26,688 nucleotides of DNA from an uncultured bacterium. GTDB lineage: Bacteria; Abyssobacteria; SURF-5. The position numbers were made by a program. Location: contig CAZSKP010000051.1 in the NCBI GenBank assembly GCA_964607485.1, positions 1-26,688 on the forward strand, in the 5' to 3' direction. Positions 18,001 through 24,000 of the stretch are shown here, piece after piece (position 1 is the first letter of the stretch; every line of letters begins with the position of its first letter).

Positions 18001-21000
18001 ATCGTTGCGGGCGGATTCGGGGCGCGGGGCGCCGAGGGCAAGATTTCCGTGATCAAACATGCGCGGGAGAAGAAGATTCCGTTCCTGGGGCTCTGCTACG
18101 GCCTGCAACTGGCGGTCGTCGAATATGCCCGGAACATGTGCGGCCTGAAGGACGCAAACAGCCGGGAGATATCAGTCGATACGCAGCATCCGGTAATAGA
18201 CTACCTGCCGGAGCAGATAGGCATCACGCAGAAGGGCGGCACCATGCGGCTTGGAGGCCATGATGTGATGATCAAGAAGGGGACGCTCGCCTACGAGCTG
18301 TATGGGAGCAAGACGCGCAAGAGATTCCGCCACCGTAACGAGGTGAATCCGAGATACATCAAACAGTTAGAGAAGGCAGGAATGGTTTTCTCGGGCAAGG
18401 CCAGAGGAAAGCCGATAATGCAGATCACCGAGTTAAACAATCACCCGTTTTTCATGGCCAGCCAGTTTCATCCGGAACTCACCTCGACGCTCGACAAGCC
18501 CTCCAAGATGTTCTATCGTTTTGTCGCGACTTCGCTGCAAATGGCCAAACAGCCCACCTGAGATTGCCCATTCGCCCTTCGTCCTTCGCCCTTCGTCATC
18601 CGCCTACACGTTTACCGCCATGATGCAATCTCATCAGCGACATTTCTATCAACAAATAGAGGCGACCGGCATAAGCCGTTGGAAAGACGGGCGAAGCACG
18701 CCACTGGCGTGACCTTCGGCGAAGATGTACATGGAGGAGTCATTGCGAGGAGAAAGGCGACGAAGCAATCTCTCTTCATCTGTAAGCCATGTAAAACCAT
18801 ATTAGGACTTAAAACCAAGAATAAAGATTTGACCCTTTGGACTCACGCAAGATTTGTAGATTTTACGCTTATGCCTTCCCGGATTTCGAATTCTTGGGAG
18901 GAGGTCCGGGAAGAAAGATTCGCTTCTGTGAATATTCGATGCCTCCACAGAGCGCAAACAGGTTTAGATATTCATGGAAGCGCTTTTTATTCGAAGAATC
19001 TAAACTAAGATCACGGAAAATAGTTTCCCATGTGGAAACCGACATTTCTCCCCTATTACTCAATATTGCGGCAGACTTATCGAAGATCAACTCAACTGGA
19101 CAGCCCATGCTCCTGAACGCCTTCTTCAACTGATTTCTCAACGTATTATTGAATAGGTCTCTTTCGACCGCTCGATGTCCTACTTTGGTGAGTTCAGCCG
19201 TTCCACTCGTCAATAAATCCAAGTGGATGCATGTCTCGATGACCTTCTTGACCGTTTCCTTCTTAACAGTTCGAGGGACAGCCTTTCCCGATTTTTCGAC
19301 CTCAAAATATGTGAAATTCAGATAGCCCATTCGAAGGATATTCTTTACTAGCGATTCGGTTGAGGAATGATCCATTTTTCGCGCCTCATCCAATATGACT
19401 TGGATCTTTCTGTATAGGCTTCTTTCCGGTATGCGAATCATGGCAGGTTTCCTCATGGGTTAAATACGAGAGATAGTTGCAGCGACTCACCGTGTCTTGG
19501 CTTAGGCGGGATTGGTGGCTTCTTCTTCTCGGCGGGCTTGTCCTCAGAGCCATCCTGGCGCTTGCCTCCTAGATACTCTGCGTCAATGATGGCAAAATAT
19601 CCATCAACCAAGCCTACGAAATCCTCAAGCGAAATATTGCCTTCCCACACACCGTTGGGATCGGCAATATCATCAATCAAGGGTTTGTACGAAGACAGCC
19701 TTAGTTTATCCTTTTCTAGAGATTCATGATTATACCTAATTGGCCGCGTGTCTTTTCGATAGGTTAGCAGGATCCTAAGATTCTCATACGCGCTCTGGGT
19801 CATAGCTCTGTCTACTACAGCTCCCTCACCGCGCCTCTTGGCACTTGAACGGTTCTTTTCAAAACAGTCGGCATTATGAAAGACGCCCCAGAAATAAGTT
19901 GAGAATTCATGACAGAGAATACCTATGAACTGCATGGTAGTCACTCGAACATCTTCCCAGATTGACGCAGCGGGTTGGCGGGCGATCCTGAGAGCACTTG
20001 GCACGCTGCTTCCCGTCTTCTTGTAAGCTAGGATCTTGGCGTAGCCACTCAAGTATGTAGAGGAGTCAAATAGCGACTTATTCATTATTTCGGAAGCAAA
20101 GCTCCGTGCCTCCCATGCCATTTTGTCAGCCGTTACGAGCCCTCTCGACGCTCTTATGCTTGATATATTGGTTGATACGTATGACATCCACTTTTGACAG
20201 GCCTCTTTCCATGCGTCTATTTCGTACCCAATCTGGTCGGCAGTGTGATCAGGAGCTTGATGTCTTCCCAGTGATATGATCTCTCTTTCAGTCAAATATG
20301 ACAGTGCGTCAATAAGGTCTTCTATCTGATCAATATCCTCCTGATGGATCGCTTTCTGCCCCTTGAGCTCAAATAGGTCTCTTTCCTCAATGTGGGATTC
20401 GACTGTTACCTCATGGCCATACGGTATGCTTTTGTGTTTGTACGTGACAATCTTTCGCAAGCCACTCCCAATATTGCTGAAAAACTCCATAACGTCCAAT
20501 ACCGCTTTTGGCTTTTCTGGATCGGTTGTTGGTGAGGCCAATCTCGTTCCATGTTTATCATTCATATCCAAGCCTGGTAGCTGTATAAGTGACTTATCCT
20601 TCATGCGCAACACAAACCAAAGATTGTGAAAGAGTCGGATGAGTTTGTCGGCTTCCTGCCAAGGAATCTCGCCTCTCCGCCGAATTGCATAGCCAAATAC
20701 TTTGTGAGATATCGGTTCCAGTATGGCAAGATCTTGCTGTGGACCTGCAATATTCCCCGTCATTTATACTGGTCCCCTAGCATCAAAGCAGTCCGATGTA
20801 CTTCTGGATTCGCAGTGTGATCCCCTCACCTTCAGGGCGAAAAATGCGGACTTTGTACTCCCTTCCGTCGGAAAATGGTAATGACTCAATATCTGGCACG
20901 ACATCTGCCTCATCGATTACCTTGTCAAGCGCGGCGCTAATGACCGCAGTCGGTATGTTCAATCTGCCCGCGCAGTCCATTATCTCAGCGCATGTGGCCC

Positions 21001-24000
21001 CACTCGCTCCGTAGGAGGATTTTGTGAGGTGCCAGATTCTTAGTATTACTGGCATTATAATTTTCTCAAATTCATAATCTTTGCCGATAATGTAGCTTTT
21101 GGGTTCATCCTTGGACGATCGGCTTTTTCGCATTCTCTGTTCCGATTTCATGCTCAGGCCATCCTGAATGGCTGCAGAGACCTGCTTGTGAACCTCCTCT
21201 ATATCAATGTCTGGGTAAACGCTTCGCAAGTGACTCAGAGGATCATCGTAGTCGTTTGGCAACTGGCGCGGAATTTCCAATCTGTCTCGGATGGGATTAA
21301 GCACGGAGAACATCCCTCTCACAACTTCTAGGCTTGCCGAAAGGCCAACAAGGTAGAAATTGATGTCAGGAGAATCCAAGTCGGGAACACCATATCTCGG
21401 AATCAGTTTCAATTCTCTTGAAGTCAACCGTGTGGGGACATTTGGATAGAATAACGGAATTACTGCGAAGTACCCCTCCCTTCGTTCGATTACCCTACAT
21501 TTTCGAACAACTGATTCTGTTGTGACAGATTCCGGAAAGCGATTGGAGAAACTTGTCTCATCGATGAGTCTCGGATTATGTACTGTGACCGTTGTGCGAT
21601 TCTGGGAAGTCAGAAATTCAACTGTATCGCCGGCATTTCTGAGCACACTGAAAAACTCCCTTCTTGGGCAGAGTACTCTTATCGGAATTTCAATGTGTTC
21701 CGTGTCAAGCAGCAGCGAACCGCGGAATTGAAGATATGCCACAATGGCCTCTCTAATCTCATCATAAATCTCATCGGCCGCTTGAGGATAATAGCAGTAA
21801 TCAGGACGGAATTTGTCGGGGCAGTTTCTGTGGGCCGCAAAAACTGCCAATTTGAGCCGACCGGATTCTCTTGAGATTCCTCTGGCCTCCAAATTCTCGA
21901 GCAGGCGTTTCACCGTTCTTGCTTTTCGTATTGTGTCATCAAACACGAGGATTCTTGGCTTGTCGTCGAAATAATCGTCGTTAACAAGTCTCGCCGCAGA
22001 GTCGCAGAGGACGGAGCTCCAACCGAGAGGTTTGTCTTTGCTGTTATAATTGCTCTCGATGAAGGTGCGCAATAGAGCCGTTCCCTTGCGATCGACAGCA
22101 ATCACAAGATTCGGTTGAAAGTCCTTCAAAGTTGCCTCAAGAAATCTCCACATCTTCCATTGAATCTTACTCGCCGCTGTCGACATCGGCATCCTCCCAG
22201 TCAAGCCCTTCCTTCTTGAAGTAAGCCTTTATTGCTTGGGTTCTACCATATCCAGGATGTTCCTTCAGAATCAGTTCAATTTCTTTCAGTACATCGCTGT
22301 CAGATTTGCCGACCTTTTCCTTGAGGTACCTAAGGGGCGGCCCTATTCGAATCTCATCGATTCGTTTTTCCAGTGCAGGAAGGAAATCTTCGGCTCTTGC
22401 TGGTAACAGGATTGCATTTCGGGTCTTCCATACCCTCCTTGCTATCCTCCATTCCTCTGAACTGTCCACCGGCAGCGCAACATACATCGTCCTATTTGGG
22501 CCGAAGCGCTGCATGAGGCTAAGCATGTAAAAGTATAAGTTCTTGAGATCATAATCGTTCATAGTATAGCCGACAAAGAGAAAGCGGTTTCGAACGATCT
22601 CTCCCTTCAACAACTGAGCGAGGGGAGTCTCGAGAGCATAGGTTTCTGATTCCGTTATTCTAATCTCACCGTTCACGATTCCGTGGAGATGAATTACTGC
22701 AACGCCCCCCTTGTTAAGATGCTTGTCGAACTCATGAACACTGCTGTCTATGATGGGGACAGCTTGTCCGCCAATGGCCTTCTCCAGCAGATCATCGTAA
22801 TTCGTTGTGTAAATCCGATTAATGTACTGCTGCGTTGCGAAGGTTCCGATTGCTGTGAGTCCTGGATGAATCGTTGCCGTGGAGGAGTCAAAGGCTTTGT
22901 TTATGAAGTTGTTCAGAGCTGTTCTGTCTGCACCTTCAGCGTAAGCCGCCGCTATCGCTTCAGGTGGATACTTCTGATTTATTTGGGAAATAGCAGAAGC
23001 ATCCTTGGCTGGATCCAACTTCAACAGATCACAGATGATGAATTCTGCGATCTCCTTGAACAGCGGCATTTTGCTCTTCTTCGACAAACCGGACCCGCAA
23101 AACAGAATAAGGTTTCTGTCAATGAGGTACTCGGCAAGACGCTTCAATTCTGCATTCAAGTCGTCCTTTTCTGCTGATCCGAGATAGCAAGGCCATGGCA
23201 TTGCGCGAATCCTCCGTTTGCGGCTCCGGCTCTAGAAACACATCAGGCTTGCCCTAGAGAGTACAACTTCTTTTGAAGAAGGGATGACACTCAGCCCTTC
23301 CACAGTGAGAAGAACTCTTTTTGGTCTTTAAGGAAACTTCAGATAGTGTGCAAGGATAACGCCGCGAAAAAATTATATCGGTCGTCGGCACCTGTGTCAA
23401 GTGATACCTCCAATATTTTTTTGGGGTACTGCATGCGTAGAATTGTACGCGCAGACAACAACGTCAAGGGATTGTGCGTCAGGCTAGTGCGTAACACTAT
23501 ATGGAGTAGATAGCTGCATTATTGGAGGGTTCATGATAATGAGCCGCGTGACCTCGGAAGTGCTGGCGAGAATAAATAATTAGGTATGGTAGTTATGCGT
23601 AGCCTCAGCAAGCCGCGAACGACCTCTCCGGTGGGTACACGTTCTCGCCATCCAGCTGGATAGATCCTGTCAACCTTGACATTCCTGATGACATTTCGGA
23701 GTGGGAATGCATCCAGTGAAAGATCAGTCCAAAGTTCTGTCCGGAGTCGCAAAGTTCCCTCTGAGTTCTGAGTTCAAGGTTCAAGGAGACAGTTTCACAA
23801 TCCCCTTCGGGCGCGGCAGTGCGGCGCTTTTACGGAAATCGCCCTTCATCCTTCGCCGTTCGCCCTTCGCCCTTCGTCCTTCGTCCCATACCGTGTCGCC
23901 TTGACGGCCAAGAAGCGTGAGTGCTATCATAAAAGGCCGTCGTCGTAATTCGGCCGTATCACATCGTATGGTGGAACGCATTGAACTTGCTGGAACGGGT

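Follow-up and report, generated by a model that had tools for sequence, protein, structure and literature searches.

A four-gene operon encoding a SIR2 protein and three proteins here called X, Y and Z is rare, patchily distributed and horizontally acquired as one unit. We tentatively read it, at a probability of roughly 0.45, as an undescribed abortive-infection-type defence system attacking NAD+ and PRPP/nucleotide pools. No earlier description of the SIR2-X-Y-Z operon was found in the literature searched. A preliminary description had proposed an undescribed SIR2-based conflict system; the results partly support that proposal and are consistent with a conserved, mobile, SIR2-based multigene conflict system outside PADLOC, Pfam and NCBIfam, while its role in defence stays a matter of interpretation.

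The cassette and its proteins

The window, the whole stretch of DNA analysed here, is 26,688 nucleotides long and comes from an uncultured bacterium. Our own ORF calls find all four genes intact on the minus strand, with tight overlaps, at the positions first assigned to them. The features of the locus are as follows.

18571..18602, no strand assigned: left boundary repeat, an array of the heptamer TTCGYCC (direct-repeat family D1), directly after the pyrG stop
18869..19456, minus strand: Z, 195 aa
19160-19264, minus strand: winged-helix-like segment of Z, residues 65-99 (PF24409, alignment A3)
19453..20763, minus strand: Y, 436 aa
20783..22204, minus strand: X, 473 aa
20783..21079, minus strand: C-terminal winged-helix domain of X, residues 376-473 plus stop codon
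21080..21724, minus strand: middle domain of X, residues 161-375, of unassigned fold (alignments A1 and A4)
21725..22183, minus strand: type I phosphoribosyltransferase (PRTase) fold of X, residues 8-160, with PPi loop R39-K40-G41-T42 and acidic pair D89-D90 kept
22167..23201, minus strand: SIR2, 344 aa, a SIR2_2-type protein predicted to be an effector that consumes NAD+
23372..23400, minus strand: promoter-like site TTGACA-17 nt-TATAAT, 12 of 12 consensus matches, lying 171 nt ahead of the start of SIR2
23838..23897, no strand assigned: right boundary repeat, in which the TTCGYCC array occurs as three overlapping copies that share 69-88% identity with the left one

The promoter-like site is a consensus match only, and the region as a whole holds eight such sites against a shuffle mean of 6.4, which is not above shuffled sequence. 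Measured in 1-kb windows, G+C content is 0.46-0.48 across 18501-23500 and 0.55-0.62 on either side, a drop that bears out the foreign composition ascribed to the cassette.

The SIR2 protein scores 68.6 bits against SIR2_2 (PF13289; cut-off 24.5) and has ThsA as its best PADLOC match, at 7.8e-13, both values being reproduced from the earlier work. Its top match among solved structures is KomC (8zsf_D, E 8.3e-10); the family profile finds KomC second, at 3e-23, together with ThsA at 5e-19 and DSR2 at 1.7e-12. Across 44 sequences G36, G38, T132 and G174 are invariant, S40 and N134 are each kept in 43, and D136 is present in 41 with glutamate in the other three, confirming the conservation originally listed. 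The catalytic histidine H173, which aligns with KomC H146, is kept in 38 (four have arginine, two asparagine), and the six copies without it count against the reading as a defence system. The window protein has N134, D136 and H173, so far as alignment can tell an intact active site, and is probably an NADase. According to the available part of one report, the H146A substitution in KomC abolishes Kongming defence (PMC13454610).

X combines a PRTase domain with a following winged helix, the layout of type III retron effectors. R39 is present in all 59 rows of the alignment, and the acidic pair is aspartate in 56 and glutamate in three at its first position, aspartate in 43 and glutamate in 15 at its second. 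The middle domain carries the most invariant motif of the family, Q159..G162-S-L-L-L-D-T-E-H-I-E172, plus K235 and R237; E169, K235 and R237 occur in 59 of 59 rows. A profile restricted to this domain found nothing in PDB sequences, and the Atlas yielded no usable match. The winged helix has two invariant acidic residues, D427 and D431, which would be unlike a DNA-reading surface and count against the favoured reading. So do the lack of the retron PRTase motif PNNxP (0 of 59 rows) and two traits of the window copy, which falls below the Pfam cut-off and has alanine in place of G95, a near-invariant residue in the PRPP loop.

The claim that X, Y and Z belong to no family holds for PADLOC (no model at E <= 1) and NCBIfam (nothing better than E 0.13), but not for relatives of X, 18 of 26 of which match PF00156 and four of 26 PF24390 (PRTase-CE); the counts first given, 27 relatives of which four carry precomputed PF00156, were found again. 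Z, too, shows family signal: PF24409 (wHTH-PRTase_assc) is matched by 20 of its 41 relatives, at E 4.8e-5 in the best case, a weak and recurrent "wHTH-PRTase associated" signal that in the window protein reaches 14.4 bits (E 0.041), under the cut-off of 27. A hint of similarity between X and ShosT, at E 0.05, was not reproduced: it fell on the N-terminal domain of ShosT and disappeared with a profile of the middle domain alone. Y, the fastest-evolving of the four proteins, found no relative in a word-based search, and its confident predicted fold, an N-terminal alpha/beta part (residues ~8-155) and a long helical bundle (~160-400), had no match.

Conservation, insertion and distribution

Conservation was assessed by our own ORF calls and iterated HMMs in 78 loci plus the window, with only loci having enough flank counted. 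Of 57 such loci, 56 have a SIR2 homologue immediately upstream of X; a Y homologue, recognized by profile and not just by ORF size, lies downstream in 58 of 59, and a Z homologue then follows in 49 of 51, a stronger conservation of order than had been claimed. The exceptions are L014, without SIR2, L073, without Y or Z, and L076, without Z. Pairwise distances of the four proteins correlate (Spearman rho 0.79-0.86, 32 loci); the proteins diverge congruently and are co-inherited.

Because two extra genes, encoding PyrF-like (A) and PyrE-like (B) paralogues, precede SIR2 in 22 of 34 loci, the full unit has six genes and the window represents the four-gene form, which makes up the other 12; the original term "four-gene cassette" is thus right for the window but not for most loci. 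A and B are additional paralogues, and they are dispensable. A stronger OMPdecase was present elsewhere in each of the five six-gene genomes tested, and B still scores as pyrE-like, reaching 113-132 bits where the cut-off is 106.8.

An insertion of 5.2 kb, holding the cassette, separates pyrG from the glycerophosphodiesterase (GDPD) gene; in two same-family genomes these genes are neighbours, an empty site. Homology to relatives ends at ~18527 and restarts at ~24000-24020. At the place of the left repeat, after pyrG, a same-family genome has TTCGTCATCCG, and the right repeat immediately precedes the promoter-like site native to the GDPD gene. X was not found in 40 relatives; it was absent from the nine same-family genomes searched, and occurred in 0 of 400 other genomes from the phylum of one carrier. 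Carriers of the cassette belong to at least seven bacterial phyla, the window proteins share 12-37% identity with their relatives, and the X tree puts members of one family into different deep clades.

Two observations made in the preliminary description recur here and count against a defence role. In the window the cassette is flanked by housekeeping genes, which encode CTP synthase, a glycerophosphodiesterase and a B12-radical SAM enzyme, and searches of 50,697 phage records, of 72,556 plasmids and of IMG/VR found no copy of it. Proximity to anti-phage genes, first counted as 18 of 150 flank ORFs in 12 of 43 loci, was found again on recount: PADLOC at 1e-8 matches 23 of the 149 nearest flank ORFs, spread over 18 of 44 loci (raw counts with no background control). 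Specific defence neighbours occur in only ~10 of 44 loci. Some are strong, and the matches include a PtuA-like/PDC-M01 pair (573 and 330 bits), HamB (1147 bits), AbiLi with PDC-M38B, HmaC, PDC-S05 and PDC-S54. What remains is generic: methylases, kinases, ABC ATPases and a sigma-54 activator. Overall, the signal is moderate. One locus adjoins an integrase, and another a HEPN/MNT-type gene.

A possible defence role and its rivals

Gene content, folds, conserved residues, co-inheritance, insertion and rarity are established by the data; NADase activity, the use of PRPP, the roles of Y and Z, any physical complex of the proteins and action against phages are inferred. As a defence system, the cassette would attack through two enzymes. 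SIR2, a small stand-alone protein of KomC/ThsA type, would be an NAD+-hydrolysing effector, and X a second enzymatic arm, binding and consuming PRPP. PRPP is a precursor of nucleotides and of NAD+ salvage, and an infected cell would lose NAD+ plus the means of rebuilding it. Y and the small, "PRTase-associated" winged-helix protein Z may together sense infection and hold both enzymes inactive before it comes. In the six-gene form, the PyrE-like and PyrF-like proteins could supply or pull the conversion of base and PRPP to a nucleotide, followed by irreversible decarboxylation. With only four genes, the cassette in the window would depend on host PyrE and PyrF.

KomC as the nearest match to SIR2 and the invariant ligand-binding loops of X would also suit a Kongming-like nucleotide-signal pathway, with X a ligand sensor and not a toxin. 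PyrE-/PyrF-like enzymes or, in the four-gene form, host or phage enzymes would turn infection-derived base and PRPP into a non-canonical mononucleotide, the PRTase-fold pocket of X would bind that mononucleotide or PRPP and switch on the KomC-like SIR2 NADase, and Y and Z would build or tune the complex. PRTase-fold regulators are an established class, in which PyrR, and PurR too, bind PRPP or nucleotides, and PyrR is among the Foldseek structural matches of X. In the accessible portion of a Kongming preprint, KomB, a nucleotide-binding protein of housekeeping origin, is the sensor of the signal and remains tightly linked to KomC, and the signal-making enzyme is less conserved and swapped for other nucleotide-metabolism genes (bioRxiv 10.1101/2024.12.20.629578). 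Such a pathway nevertheless seems unlikely here: the cassette lacks a HAM1-like protein, X retains its acidic pair and PPi loop and gives no sign of catalytic death, and a dedicated signal maker would be missing from the four-gene loci (12 of 34).

The nucleotide-biosynthesis paralogues (OPRT-like and OMPdecase-like) that 22 of 34 loci carry are equally compatible with a metabolic operon. On that account, which we hold to be less probable again, the cassette would serve not immunity but pyrimidine/NAD metabolism, as an accessory operon with a metabolic or regulatory task: the PyrE-/PyrF-like proteins would produce a nucleotide or an analogue of one, X would sense PRPP as a regulator resembling PurR/PyrR, and SIR2 would be a deacylase or ADP-ribosyltransferase acting on those enzymes or on a small molecule. 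The position beside pyrG, the housekeeping flanks, the absence from phages and plasmids and the structural match of X to PyrR all agree with this, as does sirtuin control of E. coli OPRTase via deacetylation, in the available text of PMC10087573. However, SIR2 falls in the SIR2_2/ThsA/KomC group and not with the CobB type of deacylases (17.2 bits with the NCBIfam deacylase model, whose cut-off is 243), A and B are dispensable, and defence neighbours recur; moreover, it is unusual for a metabolic operon to combine extreme rarity, cross-phylum patchiness, low identity and low G+C with an empty site in relatives.

Least probable is a conflict system not aimed at phages, either an addiction or toxin-antitoxin-like island stabilizer or a barrier to plasmids or mobile DNA, with SIR2 and/or X as toxins and Y and Z as neutralizing partners: tight gene overlaps, repeats on both sides of the island, the adjoining integrase and HEPN/MNT-type genes and, in the available parts of two reports, PRTase toxins with protein antitoxins such as ShosTA (PMC11961720; PMC12961424) speak for it, but no ShosA/DprA-like gene is present, the ShosT similarity was not reproduced, and four to six genes are many for an addiction module. 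Because addiction modules are mostly also anti-phage, the line between this alternative and abortive-infection defence is thin.

Comparison with known systems

An SIR2_2-type NADase effector is common to SIR2-HerA, DSR1/DSR2, SIR2-APAZ/short Argonaute and, by prediction, the cassette, which has neither HerA nor Argonaute and whose SIR2 is not a protein of at least 1000 aa (NCBIfam Dsr1, 18.6 bits against a cut-off of 1400). Thoeris (ThsA SIR2-SLOG plus ThsB TIR) has an effector of the same broad SIR2 group, as the ThsA matches above indicate; unlike ThsA, the cassette SIR2 has no SLOG or other sensor domain by Pfam, and none of the four proteins matches TIR. ShosTA and Ophion OpnC share a PRTase domain in a defence context, as presented in the accessible sections of the sources (PMC12961424; bioRxiv 10.1101/2025.09.30.679545), but the cassette lacks their DprA-like ShosA, radical SAM or PHP partners.

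Type III retrons (e.g. Retron-Eco11) consist of an RT, an ncRNA and a PRTase-like effector, to which a winged-helix protein is either fused or added by a downstream gene (PMC7736814, in the part available), and PF24390 PRTase-CE is tabulated beside type III retron RTs in the portion available of PMC13712802. Similarly, the cassette encodes a further small winged-helix protein, Z, downstream, and the PF24409 and PF24390 matches of Z and X relatives point the same way. Unlike these retrons, it has no reverse transcriptase, no Rfam RNA was found, X lacks PNNxP and has an additional invariant middle domain, and SIR2 and Y have no retron counterpart.

Kongming consists of the deaminase KomA, the HAM1-like sensor KomB and the SIR2 NADase KomC. 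The cassette has no deaminase or HAM1-like gene; the partners of its SIR2 are a PRTase-winged-helix protein, Y and Z, and its accessory enzymes are PyrE-like and PyrF-like. Both systems nevertheless have a small stand-alone SIR2 with an aligned catalytic histidine, coupled to proteins derived from nucleotide metabolism, and in both, as far as the accessible text on Kongming goes (bioRxiv 10.1101/2024.12.20.629578), a stable core is more loosely linked to nucleotide-making enzymes.

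Insertion site, gene order and neighborhood

Four intact open reading frames (ORFs) on the minus strand, encoding a SIR2 protein, a phosphoribosyltransferase (PRTase)-like protein X, and two partner proteins, Y and Z, lie exactly where the preliminary description placed them. The genes and the sequence features around them are as follows.

18571-18602 and 23838-23897: arrays of the heptamer TTCGYCC, direct repeats bounding the insertion, 69-88% identical and 5267 nt apart
18869-19456, minus strand: Z, 195 aa, intact ORF
19453-20763, minus strand: Y, 436 aa, intact ORF
20783-22204, minus strand: X, 473 aa, intact ORF
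22167-23201, minus strand: SIR2, 344 aa, intact ORF
23372-23400, minus strand: perfect sigma-70-like consensus TTGACA-17-TATAAT, 171 nt upstream of SIR2, identified by consensus match alone

The genes for CTP synthase and glycerophosphodiesterase are neighbors in two genomes of the same family, separated by 286 and 168 nt; in the window they stand 5.4 kb apart, and nucleotide homology to those two genomes ends near position 18527 and resumes at about 24000-24020. The TTCGYCC arrays flanking this 5.2 kb insertion may represent a recombination site or a target duplication; a same-family genome carries TTCGTCATCCG, part of the repeat sequence, at the same spot after pyrG. Pfam identified no integrase among the four proteins of the island, and the window contains no tRNA gene. 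The 5' leader of the cassette is not unusually structured (z 0.63). The promoter-like site falls inside a 636-nt non-coding stretch of low G+C content that has no relative in other loci, and no non-coding element upstream of SIR2 common to other loci was found.

Related loci, 14 from species genomes and 64 from metagenomes, were collected with an X alignment, and our own ORF calls plus an iterated HMM for each protein were applied to these 78 loci and the window, counting loci with enough flank. The gene order proved more strongly conserved than first reported: in 56 of 57 loci the gene immediately upstream of X is SIR2, a Y homolog recognized by profile follows X in 58 of 59, and a Z homolog is present in 49 of the 51 with room for it. 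The exceptions are L014, which has no SIR2, L073, with neither Y nor Z, and L076, with no Z. At L014 (8212-13093, Verrucomicrobia), an opposite-strand RhuM-family gene (PDC-S05, 502 bits) occupies the place of SIR2 beside X-Y-Z. Pairwise distances of the four proteins are correlated, with rho 0.79-0.86 for the 32 loci that have all four, a description rather than a test because the loci are themselves related; the genes therefore travel together.

Carriers among species genomes are metagenome-assembled genomes (MAGs) of Verrucomicrobiota, Acidobacteriota, Planctomycetota, Nitrospinota, Desulfobacterales, Latescibacterota, and Dormibacterota. One X-Y copy (L003) sits on a 2.3-kb contig binned to an archaeal MAG of Methanobacteriota, a binning that may be wrong, since the X tree places this copy well inside a group of bacterial sequences. 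X was found in none of 40 related genomes, the nine same-family genomes included, and in none of 400 other genomes sampled from one carrier's phylum. A search across the window's own phylum reached only 11 genomes, that of the window included, so the collection searched contains few members of this phylum. The earlier observation that the cassette is absent from viruses and plasmids holds for X in phage records, plasmids, and IMG/VR.

Some neighboring genes resemble known defense genes, as had been proposed. Excluding the upstream genes A and B treated below, 23 of the 149 nearest flanking ORFs, in 18 of 44 loci, match PADLOC models at 1e-8, a raw count without a background comparison. Matches of a specific defense type occur in about ten loci, the remainder being generic. 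They include a PDC-M01A/B PtuA-like pair (L027), HamB at 1147 bits (L065), and AbiLi with PDC-M38B (L038), as well as HmaC, PDC-S05 (RhuM by Pfam), PDC-S54, QatC, PDC-M36A, a HerA-like protein, and a second SIR2. No further flanking gene family recurs in more than three loci.

Proteins of the cassette

The SIR2 protein of the window matches PF13289 (SIR2_2) at 68.6 bits, against a gathering cut-off of 24.5, and its best PADLOC match is ThsA (7.8e-13), both as first reported. Its NAD+-site set is complete: G36, G38, and S40 of the GxGxS loop, T132, N134, and D136 of the TxN..D motif, and the histidine H173. Conservation of these positions was upheld in 44 family members, with G36, G38, and T132 retained in all 44, N134 in 43, and D136 in 41; position 173 is His in 38, Arg in four, and Asn in two. 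Six rows of the SIR2 alignment (from loci L033, L010, L078, L056, L025, and L077) thus have Arg or Asn for the catalytic His while mostly retaining N134 and D136; either the copies are inactive or this group of SIR2 proteins tolerates the change. The family profile lies closest to solved defense NADases: the top entry, unnamed and 278 aa long, is labeled "NAD-dependent protein deacetylase" (6e-24), and the others are KomC, the SIR2 NADase of the Kongming system (3e-23), ThsA (5e-19), and DSR2 (1.7e-12). For the window protein alone, the best solved match is KomC 8zsf_D (E 8.3e-10), and H173 lies opposite KomC H146 whether the protein is aligned with KomC of wild-type sequence or with the H146N variant that has been deposited. 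The change H146A in KomC abolishes Kongming activity, according to a passage of PMC13454610. Homology and the retained residues together suggest that the cassette's SIR2 hydrolyzes NAD+.

At L005 (8198-9264), L018 (45-714), and L074 (9-785), two ORFs take the place of a single SIR2 gene, representing either broken copies or assembly errors; the one of these three in the Nitrospinota MAG has pieces of 176 and 155 aa. At L064 (4656-6304, minus strand), a second, distinct SIR2_2 gene lies directly past the cassette, accompanied by a small membrane protein (weak 8xMP match) and a 694-aa protein without a family, a group that may represent another SIR2 system.

X, Y, and Z were initially considered to match no PADLOC, Pfam, or NCBIfam model. 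This stands for PADLOC (no match at E <= 1), for NCBIfam (none better than E 0.13), and, in Pfam, for Y of the window, but X and Z carry signals below cut-off. X scores 11.8 bits on PF00156 (gathering cut-off 26.3), a model matched by 18 of 26 X relatives at E <= 0.1, with a best E-value of 6.7e-6. Z scores 14.4 bits on PF24409 ("wHTH-PRTase associated"), also under its gathering cut-off; 20 of 41 Z family members match this model (best E 4.8e-5), a weak but consistent signal. Whole-genome scans with PF24409, covering 11 genomes from the phylum of the window and 79 from that of a carrier, gave no match, and are too insensitive to be informative because the carrier genome itself was among those without one.

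The 27 relatives of X originally counted were confirmed, with identities of 26-36%. The predicted structure of X is confident (pLDDT 90.4, pTM 0.90) and has the PRTase core fold, including its PPi loop and the paired acidic residues of the PRPP loop. Over 59 aligned rows, R39 is invariant, position 89 is Asp in 56 and Glu in three, and position 90 is Asp in 43 and Glu in 15. The fold, these retained PRPP-site residues, and a precedent in Retron-Eco11, whose PRTase-winged-helix effector lowers PRPP once activated (as described in part of PMC12746101), suggest that X would bind and probably consume PRPP. GSLLLDTEHIE, the motif that varies least across the family, lies with K235 and R237 in the middle domain (residues 161-375), for which neither a domain-only profile search nor the ESM Atlas gave an assignable relative. 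The similarity to ShosT noted earlier disappeared with a middle-domain profile, and that hint was rejected. No fused form of X was found among proteins of 957-2730 aa, which is weak evidence.

Y is the most divergent of the cassette proteins (mean column identity 21%). Its structure is predicted with confidence (pLDDT 83.4, pTM 0.85), and despite this no convincing fold or sequence match emerged: Foldseek against PDB and BFVD returned nothing at E <= 1e-3, the ESM Atlas had no usable match, and a word-based homolog search retrieved Y itself only. The best match of the Y profile among PDB sequences, a coiled-coil piece of myosin (E 0.039), is unconvincing. In a set of 1.84 billion proteins, a Y profile identifies 242 representatives at E <= 0.001, with lengths of 197-474 aa among the 150 matches listed. 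Complex prediction in which Y was the partner of SIR2 and Z gave a score of 0.00, which speaks neither for nor against a complex.

PyrF-like and PyrE-like genes upstream of SIR2

In many loci, two extra genes on the same strand, A (about 240 aa) and B (about 225 aa), lie directly upstream of SIR2. A scores 45-69 bits on PF00215 (OMPdecase), and B matches PF00156. B is PyrE-like: six of the eight tested reach 113-132 bits on TIGR00336, above its cut-off of 106.8, but the scores on NF001729 are 171-214 bits, below that full-length equivalog's cut-off of 245. A appears to be a divergent PyrF, scoring 62-90 bits on NF010386 (cut-off 208); its family retains the N-terminal Asp and Lys, has YDHQKAxTDIP in place of DxKxxD, with altered spacing, and lacks the phosphate-binding Arg. 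The gene in A's place at L030 is a canonical PyrF (240 bits on NF001273, above the cut-off of 193).

The description of a four-gene cassette therefore holds for the window, with its four intact genes, but not for most loci. Of the 34 non-redundant loci whose sequence extends 1700 nt or more upstream of SIR2, 22 contain B, accompanied by divergent A in 19 and by the canonical type in three (L030, plus L039 and L024, both assigned solely by likeness to L030); 12 loci, the window included, have neither gene. All five six-gene genomes tested encode a stronger OMPdecase elsewhere (139-216 bits), so A and B are extra paralogs. Six-gene and four-gene forms are interspersed in the X tree, requiring nine changes, at least seven of them forced by well-supported branches; as few changes also suffice in 98 of 500 label shuffles. 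The query used found no A homolog in the window's genome, where B has only weak PRTase matches, and no remnant of either gene was detected upstream of the window's SIR2 (best tblastn E 0.007 among 52 queries; HMM E-values of 0.65 or greater).

Proposed function and relation to known systems

We propose, with a probability a little under one half, that the cassette is an undescribed abortive-infection-type system. SIR2 would hydrolyze NAD+, and X would bind and probably consume PRPP. PRPP is required for nucleotide synthesis and NAD+ salvage, and losing both pools together would make repair harder for a phage. Y and Z would be the sensing and restraining parts, roles suggested by position and rate only, while A and B could supply or draw on a phosphoribosyl-transfer reaction, feeding it or pulling it forward; their repeated loss fits a role that PyrE and PyrF of the host can take over.

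The main rival uses the same parts differently, making X a ligand sensor like KomB of Kongming and A and B the makers of its signal. Passages of a preprint (bioRxiv 10.1101/2024.12.20.629578) describe a stable SIR2-sensor pair with a variable nucleotide-enzyme partner in Kongming, a pattern mirrored in the cassette loci; on balance the rival is unlikely. Even more doubtful is a new immune signaling pathway through phosphoribosyl transfer, in which the PyrE-like and PyrF-like paralogs would turn a base present only during infection into a non-canonical mononucleotide, PRTase-fold X would read it and turn on the KomC-like SIR2 NADase as effector, and Y would be a new fold that recognizes phage. 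A metabolic or regulatory operon, or an addiction module, is less probable still.

Bacterial immunity is known to use SIR2 NADases and, separately, PRTase effectors as weapons, and a conserved system joining both is undescribed in the searchable literature: we found no paper on SIR2 with a PRTase-winged-helix protein or PyrE/PyrF paralogs, and supplementary tables may list the operon untested. Screens centered on E. coli and Bacillus may have missed the cassette because its carriers are all uncultured environmental bacteria. If defensive, it offers a test of whether removing PRPP along with NAD+ blocks NAD+ reconstitution by phage, and of whether phosphoribosyl transfer can yield an immune signal. 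The retron-type PRTase-winged-helix module would gain a concrete role outside retrons, and the Y family, of unassigned fold, becomes a new target for structural and functional work.

Thoeris is marked by a ThsA with a SLOG (or Macro) sensor domain and an adjacent TIR protein, ThsB. In contrast, the cassette's SIR2 has, by Pfam, SIR2_2 only, with no SLOG or Macro domain, and X, Y, and Z include no TIR domain (Pfam) and no ThsB match (PADLOC). ShosTA combines ShosT (PPase plus PRTase) with the DprA-like ShosA, whereas the cassette has no DprA-like gene by Pfam. It resembles type III retrons in the PRTase-like, winged-helix-bearing X and in a downstream Z with its PF24409 signal. Unlike them, it has no reverse transcriptase family in any of its four proteins (Pfam) and no msr/msd-type RNA (Rfam gave nothing at E <= 1 across 18400-24100), and the PNNxP of the retron PRTase motif, Gx14PNNxP as given in a section of PMC12746101, is missing from all 59 X sequences. 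In Kongming, as outlined in the same preprint (bioRxiv 10.1101/2024.12.20.629578), the SIR2 partner is HAM1-like KomB, usually with the deaminase KomA; no HAM1 or deaminase family is matched by X, Y, or Z at E <= 1 (Pfam), but the cassette shares with Kongming a KomC-like SIR2 and a stable core with variable nucleotide-enzyme genes. The SIR2 NADase, PRTase effector, and winged-helix partner are thus of known kinds; what is new is their combination, the Y family, the middle domain of X, and the private pair of PyrE and PyrF paralogs found in most loci.
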